From Verrucomicrobiia bacterium (lineage in GTDB: Bacteria > Verrucomicrobiota > Verrucomicrobiia > Limisphaerales > UBA1319): 64,000 bases of DNA. The notes under the pieces were generated by a model, which saw only the letters and a program-made list of their open reading frames with translations, was not told where the DNA came from and did not search any database. This document shows, piece after piece, positions 27,516 to 44,534 of the stretch. Position numbers and translations under genes: made by a program. The stretch lies in contig OY760937.1 of assembly GCA_963664225.1 (NCBI GenBank), positions 4,544,001 through 4,608,000 on the forward strand. The letters are read 5' to 3'. Each line of letters opens with the position of its first letter. Within the stretch, counting starts at the first letter, position 1.

Positions 27516-30500
27516 ATGTGGATTGTCAGCCTTGCCTTGCGACGGCCCTACACTTTTGTGGTGGCCGCCCTGCTTCTTTTGTTGGTGACGCCCTTTGTTT
27601 TGCTGCGGACCCCGACGGACATCTTTCCGAGCATCAACATTCCGGTGATCAGCATCATCTGGCAATACAACGGTCTGGACGCGCAAGACGTGGAACAGCG
27701 TCTTGTTTACGCGAATGAGAGGGCGCTGAGCATCACGGTCAACGATATCGAGCACGTGGAGTCCACATCCTACAACGGCATTGGCATCATCAAGGTCTTC
27801 CTTCAACCGGGCGCTTCCGTGCCTGCAGCCGTGGCCCAAATCACCGCCATTGCACAGACTGTGTTGCGCCAGATGCCTCCGGGACAAACCCCGCCGCTCA
27901 TTATTCAATACAACGCCTCCACAGTGCCCATTCTCCAATATGGATTCAGCAGTCCCAAAATGGCGGAGCAGGAACTGTTTGATGTCACCGCCAACCAGGT
28001 GCGAATCGGTCTTGCGACAGTTCGTGGCGCGGTCGTTCCCTGGCCGTATGGCGGTAAGATGCGCCTGGTGATGGTGGATTTGAACTTGTCCTCCCTGAAG
28101 GCCAAGAATCTTGCACCGCAGGATGTCGTCACCGCAATGAATGCACAAAACCTCGTTTTGCCGGGAGGCGCAGCCAAGATCGGTTCCACGGAATATGACA
28201 TTGGGGTCAATGGCTCCGTGGTCCGTATCGAGGATTTGAATGACCTCCCCATCAAGGTCGTTGATGGCGCAACGATCCGTCTGCGCGATGTGGCACAAGT
28301 ACATGACGGATTCAATCCCCAGTTGAATGCGGTTCGTCAGGACGGTGTGCGAGGGGCGCTGCTGACGATCATGAAAAGCGGCTCAGCCTCAACGCTCGAT
28401 GTGGTGCGCCAGGCGAAGGCCTCGATGACCAGAATCATGAACACGGTCACCCCGGACTTGCAGGTGAAGGAGTTTGCCGATCAATCCCTGTTTGTGCGTG
28501 CTGCCGTGAATGGAGTGCTTCGCGAAGGGGTGATTGCAGCGGCCCTAACCGCTTTGATGATTCTGCTCTTCCTGGGTTCCTGGCGCAGCACGGTCATCAT
28601 CGCGCTTTCGATCCCACTTTCCGTAATGGCCTCGGTGGCCGTTTTGAGCGCCCTGGGAGAAACCATCAATCTGATGACATTGGGTGGTCTGGCATTGGCA
28701 GTGGGTATCCTGGTGGACGATGCCACGGTAGCGATTGAGAATATTCATCAACACATGGCCACCGGGAAGAAGCTTGAAGAGTCCATTCTCGACGGCGCGC
28801 AGGAAATCGCCCTGCCAGCCTTTGTTTCCACGCTTTGCGTATGCATCGTATTCGTCCCCATGTTTTTCCTGACAGGTGTGGCGCATTATCTGTTTGTGCC
28901 GCTGGCCGAAGCAGTCGTGTTTGCCATGCTGGCCAGCTACATCCTCTCACGAACCCTGGTGCCGACGCTGGTCATGTGGTTTTATCGCAATGTGCGAATG
29001 CATGGTTTTCATGAGGACGATTCGCACGCTTCAGTGTGGATTCGTCCGGCGCTAAGATTGCAACGCGCGTTTGAGACTGGATTCGAACGTTTCCGTCATA
29101 GCTATCGTGCATTACTCGCGGCCTGTCTGGCACGCCGTGTTTTCTTTGCGCTGGGGTTTCTCGGGATTTGCGCTGCTTCCACCCTCTTGATTCCCCTGCT
29201 TGGCGAGGACTTCTTTCCGAGTGTCGATGCGGGTCAACTTCTCCTTCACGTTCGCGCGCGGACCGGAACTAGAATGGAGGAAACCATTCGACTGACGTCG
29301 CAGATTGACGCGGTTATTCGCCAGGAGATCCCTGTCTCCGAGATTCGTGGTATTACTGATAATATCGGAATCCCGAATTCAAGCATTAACCTGAGCTACA
29401 ATACCAGCGGAGTGATTGGACCTGGCGATGCGGACGTGCTGGTCTCGCTCAACAAGGGCCACGCGCCGACGGAGGATCACGTGCGACGACTGCGCAAAGT
29501 CATGAACCGGGAGTTTCCTGGCACCCTTTTTTACTTCCTGCCCGCCGACATTGTCAGCCAGACGCTGAACTTTGGGCTTCCTGCGCCCTTTGACATCCAG
29601 ATTGTCGGACGGGACCAGGTCAATAATCGCCGTGTCGCCGGGCAAATTGTGGACCAGATCCGGCACATACCCGGCGCTGTGGATGTGCATTTGCATCAGC
29701 CTTCGGATCTTCCCCGGCTCAACGTGGCAGTGGATAGGGCCAAGGCTGCGGAACTTGGTTTGACCGAACAAAATGTCGCCAGTTCCATTTTGTTGAGTCT
29801 GAGCGGCAGCGGCCAGGTTTCACCTTCTTACTGGATGGATCAACGTTTCGGAGTCCAATACCTGATCAACACCCGCGTGCCAGATTACGCAATGAATTCG
29901 ATTGAGACTTTCAAATCGACCCCCATTGGTGGTGGGATTTCCGGAGCCTCCAGCGGCCAGATATTGGACAACCTTGCAACCGTTACTCGCGGATCAGGGC
30001 CGCCGGTGTTCAGCCACTACAATGTGGCTCCAGTGATTGACATTTTCGGCGGTGTGGACGGCCGGGATCTTGGGGCGGTGTTGCATGATATCGAACCCAT
30101 AATCAAGAAAGCAACGAACGACCTGTCCCGGGGCAATTCAATCGTATTGCGAGGTCAGGCTGATACCATGCACTCAAGCTACATTGGGCTTGGCGTTGGC
30201 CTTGTCATGGCGATCGCCCTGATTTATTTGCTGCTGGTCGTAAATTTTCAAAGCTGGCTGGATCCATTCATTATCATCACCGCGCTGCCGGGCGCTCTGG
30301 CCGGAGTGTTGTGGGGACTGTTCCTTTCGCAAACCACACTCTGTGTTCCGGCGCTCATGGGGGCGATCATGAGCATGGGGGTGGCAACCGCCAACTCCGT
30401 TCTCGTGGTGAGTTTTGCTCGCGACAATCTTCGGCGTGGAATGAGCCCTGTCGCCGCCGCCTTGGATGCAGGCGCTGGACGCATTCGACCTGTTTTGATG

Positions 30501-30698
30501 ACGGCCGCCGCCATGCTGATCGGCATGCTCCCCATGAGCCTGGGTCTCGGTGAAGGCGGAGAACAAAATGCGCCACTGGGACGCGCGGTCATTGGCGGTC
30601 TCTTTGTGGCCACAATCGCAACACTCCTTTTCGTGCCGGTGGTATTCAGCTTCATGCACCGCCGCAGCACCACTCATAACTCTGAAATTTCTCGATAG
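27516..30698 (+). CDS. RND efflux permease (AcrB/AcrD/AcrF family)
   Basis: 1060 aa; GILVDDATVAIENI; RIRPVLMT; PLGRAVIGGL. Confidence 0.95.
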   Translation: MWIVSLALRRPYTFVVAALLLLLVTPFVLLRTPTDIFPSINIPVISIIWQYNGLDAQDVEQRLVYANERALSITVNDIEHVESTSYNGIGIIKVFLQPGASVPAAVAQITAIAQTVLRQMPPGQTPPLIIQYNASTVPILQYGFSSPKMAEQELFDVTANQVRIGLATVRGAVVPWPYGGKMRLVMVDLNLSSLKAKNLAPQDVVTAMNAQNLVLPGGAAKIGSTEYDIGVNGSVVRIEDLNDLPIKVVDGATIRLRDVAQVHDGFNPQLNAVRQDGVRGALLTIMKSGSASTLDVVRQAKASMTRIMNTVTPDLQVKEFADQSLFVRAAVNGVLREGVIAAALTALMILLFLGSWRSTVIIALSIPLSVMASVAVLSALGETINLMTLGGLALAVGILVDDATVAIENIHQHMATGKKLEESILDGAQEIALPAFVSTLCVCIVFVPMFFLTGVAHYLFVPLAEAVVFAMLASYILSRTLVPTLVMWFYRNVRMHGFHEDDSHASVWIRPALRLQRAFETGFERFRHSYRALLAACLARRVFFALGFLGICAASTLLIPLLGEDFFPSVDAGQLLLHVRARTGTRMEETIRLTSQIDAVIRQEIPVSEIRGITDNIGIPNSSINLSYNTSGVIGPGDADVLVSLNKGHAPTEDHVRRLRKVMNREFPGTLFYFLPADIVSQTLNFGLPAPFDIQIVGRDQVNNRRVAGQIVDQIRHIPGAVDVHLHQPSDLPRLNVAVDRAKAAELGLTEQNVASSILLSLSGSGQVSPSYWMDQRFGVQYLINTRVPDYAMNSIETFKSTPIGGGISGASSGQILDNLATVTRGSGPPVFSHYNVAPVIDIFGGVDGRDLGAVLHDIEPIIKKATNDLSRGNSIVLRGQADTMHSSYIGLGVGLVMAIALIYLLLVVNFQSWLDPFIIITALPGALAGVLWGLFLSQTTLCVPALMGAIMSMGVATANSVLVVSFARDNLRRGMSPVAAALDAGAGRIRPVLMTAAAMLIGMLPMSLGLGEGGEQNAPLGRAVIGGLFVATIATLLFVPVVFSFMHRRSTTHNSEISR

Positions 30699-30703
30699 CA
30701 CCT

Positions 30704-31912
30704 ATGGAAACGAACGAATCAAAATCTTCCCTTCGTAAGTTGAACTCCGACACAGTCGGCGCGCTTCCTGAAACGCCACCCATCCGGCTCAGCCGCTTTG
30801 CGCTGATTGTTGGCATCCTTATTTTAATCGGACTGGTGGTGGGGCTCTGGCCCCGCTTGCTCGCGCGCCGCGCGCTGGCTGCAGAGTCCAGGGATGAGTC
30901 CGGAACCTCGGTGGCGGTGGTTCTGCCTGTTCCGGGCAAGTCCGGTCTCGGGACGCCTCTTTCCGCAGAGGTTAGAGCCTTTGTCGAAGCGCCCATTTAC
31001 GCTCGCGCCAGCGGTTATTTAAAGCGGTGGCTGGTGGATATTGGAGATCAGGTCAAGGCCGGGGACCTGCTGGCGGAAATCGATACGCCAGAAATCGACC
31101 AGCAATTATCGCAAGCTAAAGCCGAGCTGGCGCAGTCTGAAGCGACGTTGGAACTGGCCAAAACCACCGCAGCGCGCTGGACCGAACTGCTCAAAACCTC
31201 AAGCGTCAGCGAACAGGAAGCCGCTGAAAAACAGGCCGATCTGGCATTGAAAATCGCAACTGTGGATGCCGTACGCGCCAATCTTCATCGGCTCGAGGAT
31301 TTGAAGCGTTTTGCCAGTGTCACCGCGCCCTTTGATGGGGCCATCACTGCCCGCCAGACGGATGTTGGCCAGTTGATCACCGCGGGCAGCGGCAAGGAAC
31401 TATTCCACCTGGCGCAAACCAACCCTTTGCGTGTGTATGTGCGTGTGCCCCAAACCTACTCCCATTCCATCAAAACAGGGCAGAAGGGCGAGCTGGTTCT
31501 CGATGAACTGCCTGGTCGTAAATTCGAAGCCCGCGTGGTGCGTTCCGCAGGTGCGATGGAACCCGGGTCACGAACACTGCTGGTCGAATTGCAGGTGGAT
31601 AATTCCAAAGGCGAACTCCTCGCCGGTGGTTACGCTCAGGTTCGGTTCGCAGACGCTAGTGAGGCACCGATACTGACTCTGCCTTCCATCACGCTGCTCT
31701 TTCGCGCCGAAGGAATTCAGGCAGGTGTTGTTGGAAGCGATAACAAAGTCGGCTTACGCACGCTTAAACTCGGGCGGGACTTCGGCCAGACCATCGAAAT
31801 ACTTGGAGGCATCGACCCCGGTGACCGGGTGATTGTAAACCCACCTGATTCGCTGGCCAACGGTCAGGTCGTGCGCGTGGTTGAACCTGTGAAAAGTGTC
31901 GCGGCAAAGTGA
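30704..31912 (+). CDS. RND periplasmic adaptor (membrane fusion protein)
   Basis: N-terminal TM; IYARASGYL, VDIGDQVKAGDLLAEID, TAPFDG. Confidence 0.92.
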   Translation: METNESKSSLRKLNSDTVGALPETPPIRLSRFALIVGILILIGLVVGLWPRLLARRALAAESRDESGTSVAVVLPVPGKSGLGTPLSAEVRAFVEAPIYARASGYLKRWLVDIGDQVKAGDLLAEIDTPEIDQQLSQAKAELAQSEATLELAKTTAARWTELLKTSSVSEQEAAEKQADLALKIATVDAVRANLHRLEDLKRFASVTAPFDGAITARQTDVGQLITAGSGKELFHLAQTNPLRVYVRVPQTYSHSIKTGQKGELVLDELPGRKFEARVVRSAGAMEPGSRTLLVELQVDNSKGELLAGGYAQVRFADASEAPILTLPSITLLFRAEGIQAGVVGSDNKVGLRTLKLGRDFGQTIEILGGIDPGDRVIVNPPDSLANGQVVRVVEPVKSVAAK

Positions 31913-33461
31913 AGTCATGGATGATATGTCGAATCCAGATCTTATTTCCGATGGCGAATCACCTTTGAACACAGGGGGAATCCAATCTTCAAAGGTTTTC
32001 TGCGCGAAGGTTCTCCTGGTCACGCTCGTGTCTCCAGCCCTTCTGGCCGGATGCGCCGTTGGGCCGAATTATTCCCGACCCACTGCATTGGGCACAAACG
32101 CCATGCCGGCGGCATTCACCGGCGCCACCTCGACAAACACCGGGCAATGGAAGCTGGCCCAGCCATCTGCCAATCTGCCGCGCGGATCGTGGTGGGATGT
32201 TTTTGGTGATCCCGATTTAAATCGTCTCGAAAATCAAGCCACAACCAATAACCAGCAACTCGCCGCCGCCCTGGCCAATTTCCAGCAGGCGCGAGCCCTG
32301 GTTAATATTTCAAGCGCGGGCTATTTTCCCCAACTTTCAGCCACGCCAGGCTTCAACCGCCAGCGCACCAGCGCCAACCAGTTTTCACGCGGTACGGGGA
32401 CCGGATCGAGTTCCACCTATAGTACCTTTAGCGTCCCGCTCGATGCGAGTTGGGAACTCGATTTGTGGGGGCGCGTGCGCCGTGCCGTTGAAGGGAGTCG
32501 CGCTCGAATGGCTGCAGTCGAAGATGATTTGGAATCACTAAAGCTTGCGATTCAGGCGGAGGTCGCGATCGATTACTTCACATTGCGGTCCCAGGATGCC
32601 CAGTATCGGTTGCTTAAAGAGACCGCGGTCACCTACAGCAGGTCGCTTGAACTGACTCAAAACCGGCGCGCGGGCGGTATTGCCACCGACCTGGATGTTT
32701 CCCAGGCCGAAACGCAGCTTCGGGCCGCGGAGGCCCAGATTCCCGCTGTGGATCTGCAACGCACTAATCTTCGCCACGCCCTGGCGACTCTCTGTGGCGA
32801 GCCAGCCACACACTTTGAACTTGGCGAAACGACGAATTCGGTCAATGTGCTCAGTTTTCCTGCAGAGCTTCCGAGTGAACTTCTCGAGCATCGACCGGAT
32901 ATTGCGGCTGCTGAACGCAGGATGGCTGCGGCGAACGCGGATGTCGGAGTGGCCTACTCTGCATTCTTTCCAAGTATCACGCTTAGTGGATTGGCCGGCT
33001 TTCAATCGATTAGCGCCAGCAGCCTTTTCAACTGGGACAGCCGCCTTTGGTCTGTCGGACCTTCGTTATCGCTGCCATTGTTTACTGGTGGTCGCAACCG
33101 CGCCCAATTGGCCGTAACCCGGGCGGCTTATGATGCCACCGTGGCGAACTATCGGCAGACCGTGCTGAGCGCCTTCCAGGACGTGGAAGATCAACTAGCG
33201 GCGCAGAGACTTTTGAAGCAGCAATATGATGCCGAAAATGCAGCGCTCAAAGCGGCCAAACGAACGCTGGAGATATCCTTGAGCCGTTACAAAGGCGGTG
33301 TCATCACTTACCTCGAAGTCGCGACCGCCCAGAGCATGGCGCTCGCTCACGAGCAAACCGTGGTCCAATTGAACGCGGCAAGATTCAATGCCAGCGTTTC
33401 CTTAATCAAGGCCTTGGGAGCCGGATGGACTGCCCAATCAGGATCTCACTCCCAGCACTGA
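31896..33461 (+). CDS. Outer-membrane efflux lipoprotein (NodT/OprM family)
   Basis: Lipobox LAGC + AVGPNY; SWELDLWG; LPSELLEHRPDIAAAER; LIKALGAGW. True start probably downstream. Confidence 0.92.
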   Translation: MSRQSEVMDDMSNPDLISDGESPLNTGGIQSSKVFCAKVLLVTLVSPALLAGCAVGPNYSRPTALGTNAMPAAFTGATSTNTGQWKLAQPSANLPRGSWWDVFGDPDLNRLENQATTNNQQLAAALANFQQARALVNISSAGYFPQLSATPGFNRQRTSANQFSRGTGTGSSSTYSTFSVPLDASWELDLWGRVRRAVEGSRARMAAVEDDLESLKLAIQAEVAIDYFTLRSQDAQYRLLKETAVTYSRSLELTQNRRAGGIATDLDVSQAETQLRAAEAQIPAVDLQRTNLRHALATLCGEPATHFELGETTNSVNVLSFPAELPSELLEHRPDIAAAERRMAAANADVGVAYSAFFPSITLSGLAGFQSISASSLFNWDSRLWSVGPSLSLPLFTGGRNRAQLAVTRAAYDATVANYRQTVLSAFQDVEDQLAAQRLLKQQYDAENAALKAAKRTLEISLSRYKGGVITYLEVATAQSMALAHEQTVVQLNAARFNASVSLIKALGAGWTAQSGSHSQH

Positions 33462-33569: not shown

Positions 33570-36356
33570 GTGAAGTTCACATCTCTTTCTTTGGCATTGG
33601 CCTGTCTGGTTTCGGTGATGGCGGGAATTGAAGCGCAAGCCGCCATCGTCGTTCAGGACCTGCGCTGCGAGTATCGCGCGAACCCGCTGGGCATTGACAA
33701 TTCCCAACCCCGCCTGGGCTGGGTTTTGGAGGCGGATCGGCGTGGGGAAAACCAGACGGCCTACCAGGTGCTGGTTGCCTCCACTGCCGCAAAGCTCGCC
33801 AGCGGCAATGCCGACCTCTGGGACAGCGGCAAGGTGGTCTCGCCGGAGTCAGTGAAGGTGGTCTATTCCGGGAAGCCGCTCAGTTCCGGGCAGTGCGTCT
33901 GGTGGAAGGTTCGGGTTTGGGGAAACGACGATCACGCGTCCCATTACAGCAAACCGGCTTCGATTGAAACCGGGTTGCTGTCGCCAATCGATTGGCACGC
34001 ACAGTGGATTCAGCGCAAATCCGCCGGTCCGTTGACCGAGGCTCAGATGTTCGCAGACCAACCCGCGCCAATTTTTCGCAAGGATTTCGTCCTCGACAAG
34101 AAAATCAAACGGGCGCGCGCCTACGCGAGCGGCCTGGGTTATTACGAGTTGCGGCTCAACGGCAATCGTGTTGGGGATCATGTGCTCGATCCTGGTTGGA
34201 CGAGTTACTCCAAACGGGTTCTCTATTCGACGTATGACGTGACAGCACAGCTAAAGCGTGGGCGTAATGCGATGGGCTTGATGCTGGGCAATGGCTGGTT
34301 TAATCCGCTGCCGTTGCGCATGTGGGGTCACATCAATCCTCGTGAGGCTTTGACCATCGGTGAACCGCGCGCCATTGTTCAGCTTGTGGTTGAATATGCG
34401 GATGGCACCAAGGCCACCATTGTCACCGATCCAAGCTGGCGCGTGAGCGATGGTCCGATCCTGCGAAACAGCGTCTATCTTGGAGAGGTCTATGACGCCC
34501 GGCGCGAGCAGCCAGGATGGGATGCGGCTGGGTTTGACGATTCACGATGGGAACCTGCTGAGCTTGCCGGTGAACCCACAGTTGGTCCTTTGCGCGCACA
34601 GGACGCACCGCCGATACGTATCACGCGCACCCTCAAGGCCGTGAAGATTGGCGAGCCGAAACCCGGAGTGTATATCTTCGATTTTGGCCAAAACTTTGCC
34701 GGATGGGCGCGATTAAGGGTGAAAGGTCCGGCTGGGACTCATGTGCGCCTCCGCTCAGGCGAACTCATTTATCCCGATGGCACCTTGAATGGAATGACCG
34801 CAGTATGCGGTCAAATCAAGGGCGGTGGCACCAATTACGTCCATGAAGGGGAAGGGGAGCCCAAGACCGCTTTTCAAGTGGATGAATATACTCTGAAGGG
34901 TAAGGGGACTGAAATATTCACGCCTCGATTCACCTTCCACGGATTTCGATATGTCGAGGTCACCGGTTTTCCGGGCAAGCCGGCATTGGATTCGCTCGAA
35001 GGTTTGCGATTGAACACGGACGTCGCCAGCGCCGGGACCTTCGAGTGTTCCAACGAGATGTTCAACCGGATTCAACGCATGGTGCTATGGACTGAATTAA
35101 GCAACCTGTTCAGCGTTCAATCGGATTGTCCCCACCGCGAGAAATATGGTTACGGAGGCGATATTGTGGCCTCCAGCGAGATGGGCATGCTGAACTTCGA
35201 CATGTCGGGCTTTTACTCGAAGGCGGCGCAGGATCTGATGGATGCGGTGCGCCCCAATGGTGGTTTTACAGAGACCTCGCCCTTTGTGGGCATCAGCGAT
35301 GAGGGATTGGGTGATAAATCAGGTCCCATTGGATGGGGCACCGCGCAACCACTCCTTCTGGCCCAGCTCCGCCAATACTATGGGGATGATCGGCCGCTGC
35401 GCGAGCAATACGAAGCCACCAAACGTTGGGTGGCGCTGCTGCGCTCCCTGGCGAAAGACGGCATACTTGACAACGGTATCAGTGATCACGAAAGCCTGGT
35501 TCCGAAACCGCGCGCGCTTTCGGGCACGGCGTTTTATTACTTTAACGTGAAGCTCTTGGCGCAACTGGCCGCCGCACTGGGAAAGGACGCCGACGCCCAG
35601 GAGGCCGCCACGCTTGCTGAAGAAATCAAAACTGCGTTCAACCAGAAATTCCTGGCAAAGGGCACGGGCCGTTATGATGCCGCCACTCAAGCTTGTCAGG
35701 CGTTTGCACTCTACCACGGTCTGGTTCCGGCCAACGAACAATCTCGCGCATTGGACGTGCTCGTCGCTGATATTGCCAGCCATGGGGATCATCTGACCAC
35801 AGGCATCTTTGGCACCAAGTATATGCTCGACGTGCTCACAGACGCGGGACGCGCAGACGTGGCGTATCGCATCGTAAATCAGACTACTTTTCCGGGCTGG
35901 GGCTACATGCTGGAACAGGGTGCCACCACGCTCTGGGAACACTGGGAATTCAGCGACAACACCTTTTCGCACAATCATCCGATGTTTGGTTCCGTGAGCG
36001 AATGGTTTTACAAGGCTCTGGCCGGAATCCTGCATGCCCCCGATGCCGTGGGTTTCGACAAGATACTGATCAAGCCGCAACCGGTGGGCGATCTAAAATG
36101 GGCGCGCGCAAGCCATGACACGGTGCGCGGCAGGGTTTCGAGCGCATGGGATAAGACGAATGGCAAATTCAAATTGAGCATTGCGATCCCAGCCAACACC
36201 CTCGCAGAGGTGCATGTGCCGGCGCGGGACGTTTCACATGTGACCGAAGGTCGCAAAGCTGCCGCCAGCGCGCGCGGGGTCAAGTTCCTGCGAATGGAAG
36301 GAAACGCCGCTGTCTTTGCCGTGGGCTCGGGTCACTACGAATTCGTGGCTGAGTGA
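33570..36356 (+). CDS. GH78 alpha-L-rhamnosidase, secreted
   Basis: LRCEYRANPLGID, DFGQNFAGW, FTFHGFRYVEV, SDCPHREK, GATTLWEHW, SHNHPMFG. Confidence 0.93.
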   Translation: MKFTSLSLALACLVSVMAGIEAQAAIVVQDLRCEYRANPLGIDNSQPRLGWVLEADRRGENQTAYQVLVASTAAKLASGNADLWDSGKVVSPESVKVVYSGKPLSSGQCVWWKVRVWGNDDHASHYSKPASIETGLLSPIDWHAQWIQRKSAGPLTEAQMFADQPAPIFRKDFVLDKKIKRARAYASGLGYYELRLNGNRVGDHVLDPGWTSYSKRVLYSTYDVTAQLKRGRNAMGLMLGNGWFNPLPLRMWGHINPREALTIGEPRAIVQLVVEYADGTKATIVTDPSWRVSDGPILRNSVYLGEVYDARREQPGWDAAGFDDSRWEPAELAGEPTVGPLRAQDAPPIRITRTLKAVKIGEPKPGVYIFDFGQNFAGWARLRVKGPAGTHVRLRSGELIYPDGTLNGMTAVCGQIKGGGTNYVHEGEGEPKTAFQVDEYTLKGKGTEIFTPRFTFHGFRYVEVTGFPGKPALDSLEGLRLNTDVASAGTFECSNEMFNRIQRMVLWTELSNLFSVQSDCPHREKYGYGGDIVASSEMGMLNFDMSGFYSKAAQDLMDAVRPNGGFTETSPFVGISDEGLGDKSGPIGWGTAQPLLLAQLRQYYGDDRPLREQYEATKRWVALLRSLAKDGILDNGISDHESLVPKPRALSGTAFYYFNVKLLAQLAAALGKDADAQEAATLAEEIKTAFNQKFLAKGTGRYDAATQACQAFALYHGLVPANEQSRALDVLVADIASHGDHLTTGIFGTKYMLDVLTDAGRADVAYRIVNQTTFPGWGYMLEQGATTLWEHWEFSDNTFSHNHPMFGSVSEWFYKALAGILHAPDAVGFDKILIKPQPVGDLKWARASHDTVRGRVSSAWDKTNGKFKLSIAIPANTLAEVHVPARDVSHVTEGRKAAASARGVKFLRMEGNAAVFAVGSGHYEFVAE

Positions 36357-36437
36357 GTTGCTTAACGGGACGTGTTGTGAATTCGCATGGGTGAGTTATG
36401 GTCTTGAATACATTCACGATTGTGGTAAAAATCTGCC

Positions 36438-38087
36438 ATGACAATCCCATCGACGCCAGCATCTGAGACTATCTCTGGAGACAGTGGTCAACCACAGCCG
36501 AAGACCCCTCCGGACGGGACCGCCAAACCGCTGCGCGTGGCCATTCTATATAAACGCAACACGGAGCCCGACGAATCCCTGATGCGGTGGCTGGAGGAAA
36601 ATCTGACTCGAAACGGCCAGACGGTGTTTATTGACCGTCAACTCGAAATGGGTGTGGATTGGGCCCGCGAAATCGAAAAACAAATTCGCGAGTCCGACGC
36701 CATCATTCCCTTGCTCTCTGCGGAATCGATTCGCAGTGAAATGATGGGCTTTGAGATTGAACATGCCCATGAGACCGCCCAAAGCCAATACGGCCGTCCG
36801 CGCCTCCTGCCGGTGCGGGTGGATTATACCGGTCCGCTGCCCGAACCGCTCGGCGGCATCCTGGAGCCCATACAATATTATTTATGGCAGGGAAACCAGG
36901 ACCATGAAGGCCTGCTGTCAGAATTATTCGATGCCTTGCGCCACTTGCCGTCGGCTGAACCAGTCACTTTCCCGCTTCCCGAAAAAGGTCATCGCCTGAC
37001 GCCGTTGCCCCCGCCACCGGCCAAAGCCGCCGGGTCCGAGCCGACACCCCATCTCTGGGTGACGCCCCTTGCGCTCGAATCCGTCGGCGGGGCGGTTCCC
37101 TTGGAATCGAAGTATTATGTCAAACGAGCGGTCGATACGGAAATGCAGAACGCCCTGTCCCATCGCGACAGCATCGTTTTAATCAAGGGCGCCCGCCAGA
37201 TGGGCAAGACATCGCTGCTTGCCCGGGGACTGCAATTCGCGCGCGAATCCGGCGCGAGGACGGCGTTCATCGATTGTCAGAAGCTGAGCGCCTTTAATCT
37301 GGATAATATCAATAATTTTTACATGACCCTAGCGGAATCGCTTGCGGATCAATTGGATCTGCCGGTTTTGCCGTCCGAGGCCTGGGATCCCCGGCGGGGA
37401 CCCAACATTAATTTTGAACGGTACGTTCGCCGCGAAGTGCTGGGTCGGCTGCAGGCGCCGCTGGTCTGGGGATTGGACGAAGTGGATCGGTTGTTCCCCT
37501 GTTCGTTTGGCAGCGAGGTCTTTGGCCTTTTTCGGTCCTGGCATAACGAGCGGGCTTTGGACCCGACCGGTCCGTGGGCCGGGCTGACGCTGGCGATCGC
37601 TTACGCCACCGAGGCGCACCTGTTCATCACCGACATGAATCAATCGCCGTTCAACGTGGGCACCCGCCTGGCCTTGGATGATTTTCTGCCTGTGCAAATT
37701 GACGAATTGAATCGCCGATATGGGAATCCGCTCAAGAATTCGGAGGAGTTAAACCGGTTTGCCCGCCTGGTCGGAGGCCATCCCTATCTGGTCCGCCGCG
37801 GTTTGCATGAGTTCGCCTTGAACAAAACAAGCATGGATACCTTCGAAACCATGGCTCCGCGCGACGAAGGGATTTACGGAGATCATCTGCGCCGCATTCT
37901 GGTGTTGCTGGCCAAGGACCCGGTATTGATGGAGGTCGTGCGTGGAATCCTGCACGAAAAACCGTGCCCTACGCCGGAGAGCTTCTATCGGTTGCGCAGC
38001 GCCGGTGTGGTGGCCGGCAATTCGCCTTCGGATGCGCGTCCACGCTGTCGGCTCTACGCCATGTACCTGCGGCGCCACCTCCTATGA
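36438..38087 (+). CDS. TIR domain + AAA_35/STAND-like P-loop NTPase
   Basis: TIR_2-like motifs (VAILYKR, VFID..LEMGVDW..EIE, IIPLLS.ES..SE...FEIEHA, LLPVRV); Pro-rich linker; Walker A GARQMGKT; Walker [22 protein letters not shown]. Confidence 0.85.
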
Positions 38088-38124
38088 TTGAGAACGGCCA
38101 GTTGCCGGTTTCTTTGCTTTGCAC

Positions 38125-40068
38125 ATGAGTGCGGACAATGCCTCGTTTTATGTCATCGGCGGCACCCTTCGTGCCGATGCTGCCTGTTACGTCGAACGCA
38201 AGGCGGATCGCGATCTGCTCGAAAGCCTGCAAGCGGGTGACTGCTGTTATGTGCTGACCTCCCGTCAAATGGGCAAGTCCTCGCTCATGGTGCGGACCGC
38301 CCAGAAACTGCGTGCCCAGGGCAGCGAGGTCGTGGTGCTGGATTTGACCGCCATCGGGCAAAATCTCACTCCCGAACAATGGTATGACGGCCTTAACGTC
38401 CGCATGGGCCGACAACTCCGCCGGGAAGAAGAGTTGGAGGATTATTGGATCAAGAACGAGCGATTGAGTCCCGTGCAACGCTTCTTCAGCGCCATCCGAG
38501 ATCTGGTTCTGCCGAAATTGACCGGCTCCCTGGTCGTGTTTGTGGATGAAATCGATATTGTTCGCTCACTTCCGTTTTCCATCGACGAATTTTTCGCGGC
38601 GATCCGCGAGTGCTACACCCGGAGGACCGTGGATCCGGAGTTCAACCGGCTTGCCTTCTGTCTGATGGGCGTGGCCACCCCTGGAGATCTTATCAAAGAC
38701 GTTCGTATGACGCCGTTCAACATTGCCCGGCGCATCGAATTACGGGATTTCACAGAGGCCGAAGCCCAGCCACTGGCCAACGCCCTGGGGCGGTCCTCCT
38801 ACCTTGCCAAACGCATGTTGCGGCGCATCCTATACTGGACCGGCGGCCATCCCTACCTGACCCAGCGGCTTTGCCAGGCTGTGGCTTCGGATACCGGATT
38901 GTGGCGCCTCAAGCATGTGGATCAGGTATGCCAGGAGATTTTCCTGTCGCATCGGGCACGGGAACGCGACGACAACCTGCTGTTTGTGCGCGAGCGCTTA
39001 TTGCGCAGCGAGGCCGATCGCATCAAACTCCTCCGTCTCTACCGCAAAGTCCATCTGACCACTCATATCACCGGCATCTTCCGTCTCGGCCTGGGTCTCG
39101 AAAAAATTGCGCCCGTGGCGGACGAGGAGACCAATCCCCTGGTAAGCGTCCTGCGACTCTCAGGCATCACCCGCGAGGAAAAGGGTTTTCTCAAAGTGCG
39201 CAACCGAATTTACTATCAAGCCTTTGATCGTAATTGGATTCTGGCGAACATGCCCGAGGTGGAAATCTGGCGGTGGGTGGTTTATTTCCTGACTGGATTA
39301 AAGCGGCTGGCCAGCTTCCTTATTTGGGTGGCGGTTATCCTCACTGTGTTCGGTTATTCCATCTCCATATTCACCAGGACCTTTCGGGACAAGTATTTTA
39401 CAGCCCTGGTCAATCAGCCCATGGCCGTCCACCGTCCGCATCCTATCGTATCTTCGCGCCCTGGGGATGCGTCGGCCCGCCTTCTGGATCTGACCCGGTT
39501 TTACAACGCCTCTCTGCGGGACAACTGGCACGATGGTTTTGCGGGATCTCTTGCCTCCCTGCCCGTCGGGCTTTCGGAGTTTAAAGGCATTCGGTTTGAC
39601 GTACGAGCCATCGTGCAACTCTCAGGTACAGAGTTAATCAGCCGTGGTTATCCGCCCAAAATCGAGGGCCTCCCAGTCCGCCAAAAATGCGCGCGCCTGC
39701 ATTTCCTGGGCGCCACTGGCTGGGATGAAGCCATGGGCCGCCAAGTCGCTAACGTGGTCGTCCATTATGCAAATGGCCAAAAACGATTCATTCCACTTCT
39801 CTACGGACAGGACCTTCTAGACTGGGCTCACGATGCCACCGATGAGCCTCAAAAAGCGGGTGCGCAGGTGGCCTGGGTCGGAGACAGCAGGGATAGTAAT
39901 ATGGATAACCCATTGCGACGCCTGTTCCTGATCACTAAAGACAATCCGCTGCCCGACGAGGAAATCGCCACACTCGATTTGGAATCCACGATGAGTCGCG
40001 CCGCCCCGTTCTTTGTCGCAATCACGGTTGATCCATCCAACAGCCCGGCAGAAGCCGAGGCGCAATAG
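38125..40068 (+). CDS. AAA_35/STAND-like NTPase + transmembrane helix + C-terminal putative extracytoplasmic beta-rich domain
   Basis: FYVIGGTL, YVERKAD, TSRQMGKSS, LVVFVDEID, TPFNIA, WTGGHPYLTQ, LKVRNRIY; TM FLIWVAVILTVFGYSISIF; about 200-aa C-terminal domain. Confidence 0.85.
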   Translation: MSADNASFYVIGGTLRADAACYVERKADRDLLESLQAGDCCYVLTSRQMGKSSLMVRTAQKLRAQGSEVVVLDLTAIGQNLTPEQWYDGLNVRMGRQLRREEELEDYWIKNERLSPVQRFFSAIRDLVLPKLTGSLVVFVDEIDIVRSLPFSIDEFFAAIRECYTRRTVDPEFNRLAFCLMGVATPGDLIKDVRMTPFNIARRIELRDFTEAEAQPLANALGRSSYLAKRMLRRILYWTGGHPYLTQRLCQAVASDTGLWRLKHVDQVCQEIFLSHRARERDDNLLFVRERLLRSEADRIKLLRLYRKVHLTTHITGIFRLGLGLEKIAPVADEETNPLVSVLRLSGITREEKGFLKVRNRIYYQAFDRNWILANMPEVEIWRWVVYFLTGLKRLASFLIWVAVILTVFGYSISIFTRTFRDKYFTALVNQPMAVHRPHPIVSSRPGDASARLLDLTRFYNASLRDNWHDGFAGSLASLPVGLSEFKGIRFDVRAIVQLSGTELISRGYPPKIEGLPVRQKCARLHFLGATGWDEAMGRQVANVVVHYANGQKRFIPLLYGQDLLDWAHDATDEPQKAGAQVAWVGDSRDSNMDNPLRRLFLITKDNPLPDEEIATLDLESTMSRAAPFFVAITVDPSNSPAEAEAQ

Positions 40069-40122
40069 AAAAATCCGAGAGACTAAGCGCTGGCGAGTCT
40101 TCGCTCTATTCTCCATTCTATA

Positions 40123-40150
40123 TTGACGCGGACGGCGCGGCCTTTAGCAT
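40123..40150 (+). promoter_or_regulatory. Candidate sigma70 promoter for the fucosidase gene
   Basis: ttgacg - 16 nt - tagcat. Confidence 0.45.
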
Positions 40151-40235
40151 ATTCAAAATGACTCCCGTAAAAGCTTGTTTGGCGCCACTCGGGCCGCTCA
40201 ATAAAAGCGATTATTCATCGCATTTGCTCGTTGGC

Positions 40236-41882
40236 ATGAAATTCATTCTTTTGACTGTCCTCCTATTGGGGTGCTTGCCGTTGAACGCTGCGGAACCCAA
40301 GGACGGAACTGATTCACAGCGAATTGAATGGTGGCGGGATGCGCGGTTTGGCCTGTTCATTCATTGGGGGCCGGTCAGCCTTCAAGGGACGGAAATTGGC
40401 TGGTCAAGGGGAGGGGAACGTAGGGGCTATGGGAGCACTGGGACCGAGGTGCCGGTGGCGGTTTACGACAATCTCTACAAGAAGTTCAATCCCACGAATT
40501 ATAACGCCGAACAATGGGTGGCGTTGGCGAAAGCGGCGGGGATGAAATATGTGGTCTTTACCAGCCGGCATCATGATGGATTTAGCATGTTCGACACGAA
40601 GGCCAACGATTACAAGATTACTTCGGCAGAAAGTCCGTTCCGGCGCGATGTGGTTCGGGAATTGGCCGACGCCTGCCATAAGGCTGGCATGCCTTTCGGG
40701 CTGTATTATTCGCAGCCCAACTGGCAGCACCCGGATGCCTTCACGAGTGATCGCCATGCCCGGTACCTGGCCTATCTCAAGATCCAGTTGCGGGAGCTTC
40801 TGACGAATTATGGAAAAGTGGATATCCTCTGGTTCGATGGCCTTGGAAAAACCGCCGCTGATTATGATGCTGTGGCTTTGAATAAGATGATTCGCGAACT
40901 CCAACCCGGCATTCTCATCAATAACCGCAATGGCCTGCCGGAGGATTTCGATACTCCGGAGCAGGTGATTGGCAAGTTCCAGAATGATCGTCCGTGGGAG
41001 AGTTGCATCACGATCTGCGAGCAATGGGCGTGGAAGCCCGGCGACAACATGAAATCGCTGCAAAAGTGCCTGGAAACGTTGATTCGGTGCGCGGGCGGCG
41101 ATGGTAATCTGCTGTTCAACGTGGGGCCGATGCCCGATGGGCGCATCGAACCTCGCCAGGAGGCGCGATTGTGTGAAATGGGCGCATGGCTGGCCAAAAA
41201 TGGGCAAACCATTTACGGAACGCGCGGAGGGCCTTGGAAACCCAATGCCTCCGTAGCCAGCACGCGTCGAGGAAATACGATTTTTGTTCATATTCTCAAA
41301 TGGAACGGGGCGACGGTTACGCTGCCAAACATCCCTCGCAAAATCATGGTTGCATCCCTTATAACCGGCGGGAAAGTTGATCTGAAACAAACGGATGAGG
41401 GGATTGTTCTCTCGGTGCCAGTCGGCGATCGGCAGCCAATCGACACCCTTGTGAAACTCGAGTTGGACGGTTCGGCCATGGATCTGGCACCGGTCGGCGT
41501 GGCGTCCGGGATCAAGGCAGCCGCCTCGAATGTCTATCACCACATGGAGGATTATGATGCTGCGAAGGCGTTCGATGGAGATCCTTCCACGCGTTGGGCC
41601 ACAGATGATGGAACCCATCAGGCCTGGATATCCACGGATTTTGGAAAATTGAGAACCTTTCATCATGTGGTGATCCATGAGGATTACGAGGGGCGCGTTC
41701 GGAAATTTGACCTGCAATACAAGGATCCCAATGGAGCGAACGCGTGGCGGACCATCCTGTCGGGCACCACGCTGGGGAAAGATTACTCGAAGGAGTTTCC
41801 TCCAGTTGCAGCGCGTGAGGTGCGGCTCAACATCCTTGAGGCCACCGAGGGTCCCACCATTTCTGAGATTCGCTTCGAATAG
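40236..41882 (+). CDS. GH29 alpha-L-fucosidase with C-terminal F5/8-type (CBM32-like) domain
   Basis: WWRDARFGLFIHWG, RHHDGFSMF, LWFDG, INNR, TPEQ, WESC, NLLFNVGP; AFDGDPSTRW. Start placed at signal peptide MKFILL (ORF opens at 40158). Confidence 0.93.
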   Translation: MKFILLTVLLLGCLPLNAAEPKDGTDSQRIEWWRDARFGLFIHWGPVSLQGTEIGWSRGGERRGYGSTGTEVPVAVYDNLYKKFNPTNYNAEQWVALAKAAGMKYVVFTSRHHDGFSMFDTKANDYKITSAESPFRRDVVRELADACHKAGMPFGLYYSQPNWQHPDAFTSDRHARYLAYLKIQLRELLTNYGKVDILWFDGLGKTAADYDAVALNKMIRELQPGILINNRNGLPEDFDTPEQVIGKFQNDRPWESCITICEQWAWKPGDNMKSLQKCLETLIRCAGGDGNLLFNVGPMPDGRIEPRQEARLCEMGAWLAKNGQTIYGTRGGPWKPNASVASTRRGNTIFVHILKWNGATVTLPNIPRKIMVASLITGGKVDLKQTDEGIVLSVPVGDRQPIDTLVKLELDGSAMDLAPVGVASGIKAAASNVYHHMEDYDAAKAFDGDPSTRWATDDGTHQAWISTDFGKLRTFHHVVIHEDYEGRVRKFDLQYKDPNGANAWRTILSGTTLGKDYSKEFPPVAAREVRLNILEATEGPTISEIRFE

Positions 41883-43358: not shown

Positions 43359-44534
43359 TTACGCTTTGCCGTAGAAACTCTCAACGACTTCGCGGAAATT
43401 ATTACGTTTGATGCCGATGATGCCCATCTCGCGTCTGGCATTATCCTCGGAATCGCTGGCATGGGCCGCGTTGACCATGATGGTCTGGCCGAATTCGCGG
43501 CGGATCGAGCCGGGAGGCGCCTTCGAAGGATCTGTCGGCCCGAGGACTTCGCGAATCTTCTGCACCGCGTTTTCGCCTTCATAGACGAGGGCGATGCATT
43601 TTTCAGTGCCCGGCACATCGCGCAACTTCGGATCGCAGGTGGTGGGTGTGCAGCCAGCCATGAATTTGATGATGTTTTCGAATTGGTTGTCGCCCATGAG
43701 CGGCCCCAGGAGTCCGCCCAACTTGTCCACAACGGGTTGCGGTAAATCGAATTTGAATTCGTTTTCCAAGGCGGTCTTGGCCTTGATGGCGGCGACACCC
43801 ATTAATTTCTCCCGCAGCACTTCGCGAACAGGCCCGTAGAATTCCATGGCCTCTGTGACGCTCATGCAATGGAGCTTGATGCCCACGATGAACAGGCCGG
43901 TACGCGAAAAGAAATCGATCACGTTGCCGGGGCGGCCGGTGGAGAAACGGAAATTATCCGGCTTGATGAGAACCAGGGTGCGTTGAGGAGTGACATCGGG
44001 AGGATAAGCGATGATGTTGGTCAGTATGCCGCCGTCGGAATCCGAATAGCTGGCCCAGAGCTTGAGCTTGACGCTGGCTTCCTCCACATTCGGCGCCGCC
44101 AGAACGGCCGGCTCGAAATAGCGCACGTTATCGTGTTCGTCGAAGACCAGATCGCCGTAAGTGTCGCGAATTGTTTCGCCACCCACGCGGTTCAAGCTGA
44201 AGTTTCCGACGGCATTCCGTATTTTTTCAACGGCATCTTCCCCGCGAAACAACAGCACCATCACGCGGCGCGGCCGCTGGGTTTTGGGGTCGGGAACGAA
44301 GTATTTCGATACGTAATCCCGGATCAAGGTCTGAACCCTGCGGTCCTGGACATTGTCGGAGGAGACCAGAATGGAGCTGTATTTCTGAATCAGCTCGTTG
44401 CTGGGTGCGAACATGCGCGCGCCAGCCAGTTCCAGGCCGGTGCGGCTGATCAGCCGGGCCAGAATTCCTCCCGTGCGTGATTTGTTCAATGAATACGGAG
44501 TAATAATCGCGTATGCTAACTGTTCAGCGGACAT
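43359..44534 (-). CDS. ndk: Tandem two-domain nucleoside-diphosphate kinase
   Basis: C-domain RTLVLIKPD, LGPTDP.KAPPGSIRREFG, NAAHASDS; N-domain homologous (AIITPY, ETIRDTYG) but lacks the catalytic His. Confidence 0.8.
   Translation of the reverse strand: MSAEQLAYAIITPYSLNKSRTGGILARLISRTGLELAGARMFAPSNELIQKYSSILVSSDNVQDRRVQTLIRDYVSKYFVPDPKTQRPRRVMVLLFRGEDAVEKIRNAVGNFSLNRVGGETIRDTYGDLVFDEHDNVRYFEPAVLAAPNVEEASVKLKLWASYSDSDGGILTNIIAYPPDVTPQRTLVLIKPDNFRFSTGRPGNVIDFFSRTGLFIVGIKLHCMSVTEAMEFYGPVREVLREKLMGVAAIKAKTALENEFKFDLPQPVVDKLGGLLGPLMGDNQFENIIKFMAGCTPTTCDPKLRDVPGTEKCIALVYEGENAVQKIREVLGPTDPSKAPPGSIRREFGQTIMVNAAHASDSEDNARREMGIIGIKRNNFREVVESFYGKA

Follow-up and report, generated by a model that had tools for sequence, protein, structure and literature searches.

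A TIR-bearing AAA_35 NTPase and a membrane-spanning paralogue form a conserved gene pair and a candidate transmembrane signalling module

The stretch of DNA analysed here (the window) comprises 64,000 nucleotides of a Verrucomicrobiia bacterium (assembly GCA_963664225.1, contig OY760937.1, positions 4,544,001 to 4,608,000) and contains two adjacent genes for AAA_35 nucleoside triphosphatases (NTPases). Gene 1 (36438..38087) is a 549-amino-acid (aa) open reading frame (ORF) with an ATG start and encodes the output-side protein, a TIR domain followed by an AAA_35 NTPase. Gene 2 (38125..40068) encodes the sensor-side protein, an AAA_35 NTPase, after which come a transmembrane helix and an ectodomain. 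Both genes, and all features described within them, lie on the forward (+) strand. On balance, and with considerable room for doubt, the two proteins appear to form a conserved transmembrane signalling module. Its components, paralogous AAA_35 (STAND-like) NTPases, diverged long ago, and a cue from outside would drive their co-assembly and TIR activation. The domains, paralogy, conserved pairing, domain swapping and fold described below are computed results, and the heterodimer and the topology are predictions. Residues of gene 2 are numbered throughout from a TTG codon at 38119.

The NTPase cores of the two proteins are paralogous. The gene 1 module (37089..38072, residues 218-545) matches Pfam AAA_35 (PF14516) over profile positions 4-330 of 331 (E 4e-76, 256.4 bits) and includes a C-terminal helical/winged-helix part. 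The gene 2 core (38161..38889, residues 15-257) matches the same family over profile positions 4-245 (E 3e-30, 105.4 bits); the cut-off is 27 bits. Compared by BLASTP, the proteins are 29% identical over 255 residues (E 7e-20). The NTPase motifs that an earlier note, made from the sequence alone, had listed as shared are present in both: RQMGKT/RQMGKS within Walker A (GARQMGKT in gene 1, SRQMGKS in gene 2), the Walker B motifs LDEVD and VDEID, PFN and GGHPYL. Walker A (GxxxxGK[ST]) and Walker B (hhhhDE) are intact in both proteins, as in STAND NTPases. K257, T258, D347 and E348 are invariant in the gene 1 alignment, as are G52, K53, S54, D143 and E144 in the gene 2 alignment. GGHPYL, which we take to be the STAND GxP signature of the helical domain, contains the invariant residues G447 and P449 in gene 1 and G243 and P245 in gene 2. 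Between the gene 2 core and its membrane helix is a highly conserved, predicted cytoplasmic region with many invariant columns (38890..39273, residues 258-385).

The structure model of gene 1 residues 205-549 has a mean predicted local distance difference test score (pLDDT) of 85.9. Its best Foldseek matches are 2qen (E 8e-10) and 2fna (E 2e-8), with template-modelling (TM) scores of 0.62-0.64. Further matches include CED-4 (TM 0.60), Apaf-1 (0.57), Avs3 (0.54), ORC/Cdc6, MalT, a wheat resistosome, NRC1 and NOD2. The model aligns over about 375 columns with CED-4, Apaf-1, Avs3 and MalT and has the NOD architecture. With the motifs above and this modelled fold, the label 'STAND-like' is justified; because ORC/Cdc6 aligns equally well, the fold by itself does not separate STAND from Cdc6-like AAA+ proteins. 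The C-terminal sensor that STAND proteins carry on the same chain is absent from gene 1 and lies beyond the membrane helix in gene 2. Sequence searches of the Protein Data Bank (PDB) with the single proteins give no significant match.

The TIR domain of gene 1 (36540..36911, residues 35-158) matches Pfam TIR_2 at E 1e-19 with 71.7 bits (cut-off 28) and Pfam TIR with 29.3 bits (cut-off 21.3). A poorly conserved, proline-rich linker without a Pfam match (36912..37088, residues 159-217) connects it to the NTPase. In a PDB profile search with the gene 1 alignment, the single match is the CRISPR-associated TIR protein Cat1 (9mud, E 0.0025). F105-E106-I107 of gene 1 are aligned on D-E-L of the Cat1 segment SDWCWDELEQA, and the Glu aligned with E106 is presumably the catalytic position in Cat1 and other enzymatic TIRs. 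E106 is thus the candidate catalytic residue. E108 is mostly replaced by Gln in the aligned TIRs. Of 119 aligned TIRs, kinase-TIR and SARP-TIR forms included, 118 retain E106, and the TIR domain is therefore probably an enzyme across the family, more than a mere adaptor. The gene 1 protein ends at AAA_35, and in gene 2 the NTPase begins at the N-terminus and AAA_35 is the sole Pfam match. This agrees with the description of gene 1 in the earlier note as an N-terminal TIR without a sensor domain and of gene 2 as lacking an effector.

Gene 2 contains only one strongly hydrophobic stretch, at residues ~397-418 (39307..39372), which hydropathy identifies as a single transmembrane helix (Kyte-Doolittle 19-residue maximum 2.29). 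About 230 residues remain after it. A hydrophobic segment is present in 115 of 120 gene-2 homologues, at ~360-495 in 114 of them and at 769-793 in one (P0035), and is absent from 118 of 120 gene-1 homologues. In the 15 residues flanking the segment, lysine and arginine average 5.34 on the N-terminal side versus 3.67 on the C-terminal side among 114 gene-2 homologues; the N-terminal side has more in 98, the two sides are equal in 12 and the C-terminal side has more in 4. Envelope-type ectodomains occur among the gene-2 relatives, namely PEGA, CarboxypepD_reg, LolA-like DUF2092, FGE-sulfatase and BamB-like domains. Because gene 2 is without a signal peptide, its NTPase must, to judge from the sequence, be cytoplasmic. 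The single span, the charge excess on the N-terminal side and the envelope-type relatives make it likely that the C-terminal domain lies outside the cytoplasm, in line with the earlier note's placing of the helix and this domain. A two-helix hairpin that would return the C-terminus inside is rejected: the uncharged, not strongly polar span is 15-29 residues long in 114 of 114 gene-2 homologues measured, which is too short.

Relatives of both genes are numerous. Among 8000 scored sequences for each, gene 1 has 6480 homologues and gene 2 more than 3405 at E<=1e-3. The best 120 gene-1 homologues are all TIR_2+AAA_35 proteins of 507-602 aa with 60-92% identity and, where named, are called only 'AAA-like domain-containing protein'. 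Full-length look-alikes of gene 2 are 638-715 aa long. Many relatives of 870-1040 aa are 51-64% identical to gene 2 over the first ~380 residues and differ beyond. Copy number is low: gene 1 and gene 2 are the only AAA_35 genes in the 5.78-Mb genome, and each of five other genomes contains 2-3. Within the phylum the family is patchy, with AAA_35 over the cut-off in 8 of 401 sampled genomes, the window's own included, and no close AAA_35 pair in these genomes besides the window's own. For this reason relatives were taken from species-wide and metagenome collections.

In these collections the two types of gene are usually neighbours. With the gene 1 alignment as query against a single genome per species, at least 318 relatives were confirmed, from which 79 loci were kept. 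Their ORFs were defined stop to stop and scanned with custom hidden Markov models for TIR, both NTPase types and the C-terminal module. A gene-2-type gene is directly downstream on the same strand in 50 loci and elsewhere in the locus in 6; 15 have none within ~6 kb (3 of these with a second gene-1-type gene), and 8 have too short a downstream sequence to judge. Of the 71 gene-1 loci that can be assessed, 56 thus have a gene-2-type neighbour. In the reverse direction, the gene 2 alignment was used to scan metagenomes, which confirmed 552 relatives, and 80 loci were kept. Here a gene-1-type gene is directly upstream in 62 loci, elsewhere in the locus in 2 and absent from 7, with 9 not assessable, so that 64 of 71 assessable gene-2 loci are paired. 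The loci are drawn from the Verrucomicrobiota, Acidobacteriota, Armatimonadota and others. The earlier note had held that homologues found mostly unpaired would speak against a joint receptor; in both sets pairing is the usual state.

In a tree of the NTPase cores from 47 clean pairs, all output-side cores are separated from all sensor-side cores with support of 1.0 and a branch length of 2.2. The mean p-distance is ~0.4 within each type and 0.72 between types. The distances within the two types correlate across the 47 pairs (r 0.76, reached by 0 of 999 permutations), in part through common species history.

Some loci have uneven gene numbers. In two, a pair of sensor genes that carry WD40 ectodomains stands in tandem after one output gene (L063, 4885-13771; L069, 4750-13455), and in one, two kinase-type output genes are followed by one sensor gene (L100, 4621-12343). 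These unequal numbers suggest small sensor/output networks.

The two NTPases are predicted to form a heterodimer. For gene 1 residues 205-549 and gene 2 residues 1-385, predicted with unpaired custom alignments, the complex score is 0.73 (runs 0.74, 0.73 and 0.71), and the best of three controls reaches 0.00. This mark is reached by 116 of 157 solved complexes and by 2 of 215 mismatched pairs. The runs share at least 93% of contacts, and the pLDDT of the partners is at least 81. The predicted interface involves residues 319-328, 356-376 and 394-408 of gene 1 and, in gene 2, the N-terminal strand 14-19, Walker A (49-55), 73-99, Walker B (143-150) and 285-296. Residues with at least 90% conservation are more frequent at the interface than elsewhere in both gene 1 (25/34 vs 135/311, p 0.001) and gene 2 (28/38 vs 178/347, p 0.01). 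The model supports binding of the two NTPases to one another, with a predicted contact that covers the nucleotide site of the sensor. Of the hetero-oligomers that the earlier note had proposed, it is the heterodimer that is predicted here.

Modules are exchanged at both ends of the pair, as the earlier note had anticipated in suggesting a survey for swapped sensors and effectors. The outputs include TIR, kinase-TIR, SARP-TIR, kinase and winged-helix forms, and the ectodomains are varied. In a Pfam scan of 30 output-side N-termini without TIR, Pkinase is found in 15, BTAD in 8 (4 of them also with Trans_reg_C) and Trans_reg_C alone in 6; 1 is without a match. The ORFs upstream of gene-2-type genes in the metagenome locus set give a second census, with kinase plus TIR in 28, kinase in 11, TIR in 9, winged-helix in 6, BTAD in 1 and none or other in 1; a contig end cuts the N-terminus in 6. 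A search for longer proteins finds 167 relatives, 120 of which are listed. Kinase-TIR-AAA_35 proteins of ~1000 aa, in some cases with a class 3 cyclase-like domain, make up nearly all of these 120, and 9 have a SARP/BTAD-TIR-AAA_35 architecture, one of these also with receiver and PAS domains. Many gene-1 relatives in the Acidobacteriota are Pkinase-TIR-AAA_35 proteins (L036, L040, L112-L116 and others; P0387-P0505). The combination of kinase and TIR on one NTPase switch is unusual. Since only one apparent fusion of both genes occurs among the 120 long relatives listed, the split over two genes is the rule. The apparent fusion (P0462, 1896 aa) carries Pkinase, AAA_35 and WD40, and either a true fusion or a gene-calling read-through is possible. 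On the sensor side, a Pfam scan of 48 C-terminal regions finds WD40 propellers in 31 (one with FGE-sulfatase), PEGA/CarboxypepD_reg in 5, TPR in 4 and a BamB-like domain in 1, and 7 are without a Pfam match.

The C-terminal region of gene 2 consists of an all-beta sandwich module of ~195 aa without a Pfam family (39448..40035, residues 444-639), predicted to be extracytoplasmic. Its AlphaFold model is all-beta, with pLDDT 90.3 and a predicted TM score of 0.86. The only Foldseek matches at E<=0.001 are AziU3/AziU2 (E 1.6e-6 to 8.5e-6, TM 0.51-0.61, 18-19% identity); weaker matches include the AlgX carbohydrate-binding module, Eph receptor ligand-binding domains and the carbohydrate-binding modules CBM16/22/28. 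By its model, the module is a jelly-roll-like binding module. It is found in 3284 representative proteins at E<=1e-3, of which 1963 reach <=1e-10 and 256 reach <=1e-30. Mobile and very widespread, it is a candidate new domain family. A Pfam scan of 52 of the 150 listed module-bearing proteins finds no Pfam model covering the module region itself. Elsewhere in these 52 proteins, Pkinase is present in 12, WD40 without kinase in 12, TPR only in 5, AAA_35 in 2, and Redoxin, DUF2092 and Endonuclease/exonuclease/phosphatase in 1 each; 18 are without a Pfam match. The module is often C-terminal in receptor Ser/Thr kinases and in WD40 and TPR proteins (P0242-P0385), and sometimes occurs in 2-3 tandem copies per protein. 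The closest gene-2 relatives include proteins with DUF2092 and the beta-sandwich, and long DUF2092-containing sensors also end in the module.

In the proposed mechanism, gene 2 would be the sensor, with its NTPase in the cytoplasm, one helix across the membrane and the beta-sandwich ectodomain toward the periplasm. Gene 1, soluble and with an NTPase of the sister type, would be the output, through an N-terminal TIR that has Glu at the catalytic position. A ligand or envelope cue at the ectodomain would act on the sensor NTPase, altering its conformation or nucleotide state. Next, the sensor would pair with the output NTPase via the face covering the sensor's nucleotide site and would probably nucleate oligomerisation of the output NTPase. 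Clustering of the TIR domains would result in cleavage of nicotinamide adenine dinucleotide (NAD+) or synthesis of a signalling nucleotide. Of this sequence of events, we infer ligand sensing, activation by co-assembly and TIR enzymology. Because relatives drive Ser/Thr kinase or SARP/winged-helix DNA-binding outputs, we favour the AAA_35 pair as a general signal transducer chassis, of which the TIR version may serve either defence or physiological signalling. Defence is no more likely than general signalling, since DNA-binding and kinase outputs are among the swaps and the loci lie outside defence islands.

Several observations weigh against this proposal. A DNA-binding output is hard to reconcile with a stable membrane assembly. 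The complex score may partly echo the prediction model's memory of AAA+/STAND oligomer packing, as packing over a neighbour's nucleotide site is generic to the fold. The partner is missing from the flank in 15 of 71 gene-1 loci and 7 of 71 gene-2 loci, so adjacency is not obligatory. Five of the seven unpaired gene-2 loci are among the closest relatives of the DUF2092 type (L109-L111, L128, L174), and one genome with a locally unpaired gene 1 has a second AAA_35 gene on a different contig. The mirror-tree correlation across the 47 pairs is confounded by common species history. A hydrophobic segment precedes the beta-sandwich module in only 49 of 94 assessable module-bearing proteins; many of the remaining 45 may be fragments, and the 94 exclude 37 proteins without a Met start and 13 without room for a hydrophobic segment. 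In addition, WD40 and TPR are also classic sensors of cytoplasmic STAND proteins.

The sensors of the five unpaired DUF2092-type loci have ~63% NTPase identity to gene 2, and no gene-1-type gene lies within 4 kb of them. Other gene-2 relatives of the DUF2092 type are paired (for example, L168).

The pair could instead be a dedicated abortive infection system against phages or other invaders, in which phage adsorption, injection or damage to the envelope is detected from outside by the membrane sensor, and the TIR partner depletes NAD+ so that the cell dies or is arrested. The Glu retained at the catalytic position of the TIR, the NTPase fold similar to Avs3/Avs4, CED-4 and Apaf-1, and the combination of patchy distribution (8/401 genomes), low copy number and highly variable sensors are as expected of such a system. 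In PADLOC, gene 1 has weak, partial matches only, to the TIR part of Aga (E 3e-10) and a P-loop stretch of PDC-S01 (E 3.5e-5); gene 2 has no match, and no Avs or NLR model matches either protein. At the level of whole systems, neither PADLOC nor NCBIfam gives a match, and DS8_antiphage reaches 15 bits against a cut-off of 790. For Thoeris, ThsB_TIR scores 17.8 bits, below the cut-off of 21.2, and PADLOC gives no Thoeris match; the genome was not searched for ThsA. At E<=1e-12, defence models match no more than 4 of the 95 ORFs that flank the genes in 21 related loci, a generic kinase among them, and there is no consistent defence-island context across the 21 loci. The neighbours in the window are glycoside hydrolases and an RND efflux operon, and the SARP/OmpR-type DNA-binding and kinase outputs on the same chassis fit regulation over suicide. 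We regard a dedicated abortive infection role as rather unlikely.

The predicted contact of the two NTPases also bears on a model of sequestration, in which the membrane protein keeps the output NTPase inactive, comparable to the idle maltose transporter with MalT or anti-sigma with sigma factors, and an outside signal frees it to oligomerise with itself. Gene 1 lies over the sensor's nucleotide site in the predicted heterodimer, the relatives with DNA-binding outputs would need release from the membrane to act, the MalT-transporter complex (8bob) is among the structural matches, and some output-type genes have no linked sensor. Set against this, Walker A and Walker B are intact in both NTPases, which suggests that both cycle nucleotide and that neither is a passive anchor; sequestration is judged quite improbable. 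A very improbable explanation, finally, is that gene 1 and gene 2 are two independent STAND-like proteins, left as neighbours by tandem duplication, in which the hydrophobic segment is a mere anchor or the C-terminal domain is cytoplasmic. Their paralogy and the minority of unpaired loci are compatible with independence. It is contradicted by the retention of one member of each deeply split type together across several phyla, by the absence of a sensor from gene 1 and of an output from gene 2, by a predicted complex with controls at zero, and by the positive-inside bias and the extracytoplasmic domain types in the relatives.

The ORF of gene 2 opens at TTG 38119 and has an in-frame ATG two codons on, at 38125. 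As the nearest homologues are 647 aa long, the start is probably the ATG, which gives a protein of 647 aa (649 aa from the TTG). With this start the intergenic spacer is 37 bp (38088..38124), or 31 bp from the TTG, and the two genes are co-oriented at the distance given in the earlier note. A promoter and terminator scan of 36200-40300 finds sites at chance level only, including between the genes, and is neutral on an operon. The guanine-cytosine content is unchanged across the pair. The neighbours are a resistance-nodulation-division (RND) efflux operon and genes for an alpha-L-rhamnosidase, an alpha-L-fucosidase and a 3-keto-disaccharide hydrolase-like protein. The RND efflux-like operon (27516-33461, +) has three consecutive ORFs of 1060, 402 and 521 aa, which, as read from translations, resemble an inner-membrane pump, a periplasmic adaptor and an outer-membrane factor, respectively, and it adjoins, on the upstream side, the glycoside hydrolase genes that flank the AAA_35 pair. 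A 391-aa ORF (43359-44534, -) has, by eye, two tandem nucleoside-diphosphate-kinase-like halves.

STAND/NLR-type switches are known as cytoplasmic receptors. If the proposal holds, bacteria also read outside signals with such switches, with receptor and executor split over two paralogues. It is possible, and suggested only tentatively, that the AAA_35 pair is an unrecognised class of prokaryotic transmembrane signalling, beside the two-component, extracytoplasmic function (ECF) sigma/anti-sigma, receptor kinase and chemoreceptor systems. In such a system, an outside ligand would be read by a STAND-like NTPase spanning the membrane, which would nucleate a soluble paralogue with an exchangeable N-terminal module (TIR, kinase-TIR or SARP). 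In the kinase-TIR forms, where TIR would cluster a kinase below a surface receptor, bacteria would have their own counterpart of the TLR-MyD88-IRAK logic. The family is large, counting thousands of clusters from Verrucomicrobiota, Acidobacteriota and Armatimonadota of soil and fresh water, and is wholly uncharacterised. The pair would offer a tractable system for NLR-like communication between sensor and helper, for the activation of TIR enzymes by surface signals and for the binding target of the beta-sandwich ectodomain.

Literature searches on AAA_35/PF14516, on STAND with TIR and transmembrane, and on prokaryotic paired NLRs find no description of the pair. The portions of text available from PMC7159879 and PMC8195603 contain no AAA_35 or paired membrane-spanning STAND; their supplementary tables could list the architecture. 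The inactive STAND (iSTAND) systems in PMC7159879 are rejected as an identity for the pair, the Walker motifs being intact in both proteins. The earlier note had raised a match to an already described system as grounds against its proposal, and the searches of PADLOC, NCBIfam and the literature give none.

Among the most similar known arrangements are the paired and helper-dependent NLRs of plants and animals (RRS1/RPS4, CHS3/CSA1, NAIP/NLRC4 and sensor NLR/NRC). These, too, have side-by-side paralogous STAND-type NTPases, one a sensor and one an executor, with the output in the N-terminal domain of the executor (TIR in RPS4-type pairs) and with hetero-complexes or sensor-nucleated oligomers. 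Their proteins are cytoplasmic, with NB-ARC or NACHT domains and leucine-rich repeat (LRR) sensors, whereas here the NTPases are AAA_35 and the sensor partner spans the membrane, with a domain predicted to be outside. The genes here are, in addition, co-oriented and apparently operonic, and there is no evidence for common descent of the pairing. The single-chain STAND proteins of bacterial defence (Avs1-5, bNACHT and TIR-STAND forms) share with gene 1 an N-terminal effector and a STAND NTPase (TM 0.46-0.55 to Avs3/Avs4). In Avs proteins a single chain holds effector, NTPase and cytoplasmic repeat sensor, and phage proteins are bound within the cell; here effector and sensor are on two proteins, and the sensor domain is predicted to be outside.

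Toll-like receptors (TLRs) likewise have an outside sensor domain, one membrane helix and clustering of cytoplasmic TIR domains as output. A TLR, however, is one chain with an LRR ectodomain and without an NTPase. Here there is no LRR, the TIR and the transmembrane helix are on different proteins and would be coupled by NTPases, and the ectodomain is a beta-sandwich. The term 'TLR-like' in the earlier note therefore stands as an analogy of layout and not as homology of receptors.

Among STAND transcription regulators, the SARP/AfsR type is similar to the gene-1 relatives that have Trans_reg_C and BTAD ahead of the NTPase; MalT, one of the fold matches, is under the control of a membrane complex (entry 8bob). 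AfsR and MalT have C-terminal repeat sensors of their own and NB-ARC or MalT-type NTPases; here the sensor is a separate, membrane-spanning paralogue. In structure, the gene 1 NTPase is matched best by the archaeal Walker-type ATPases PABY2304 (2qen) and SSO1545 (2fna). Unlike it, they are stand-alone cytoplasmic proteins of unassigned function, with 13-16% identity and no TIR or membrane partner. Membrane Ser/Thr receptor kinases of the Verrucomicrobiota, Planctomycetota and Acidobacteriota have the same beta-sandwich module and WD40/TPR ectodomains past the helix. In these the kinase is fused straight to the sensor, whereas here the NTPase pair stands in between. The split pair of membrane-spanning sensor and executor, with exchangeable modules, would be a new variant within NLR/STAND-type signalling.

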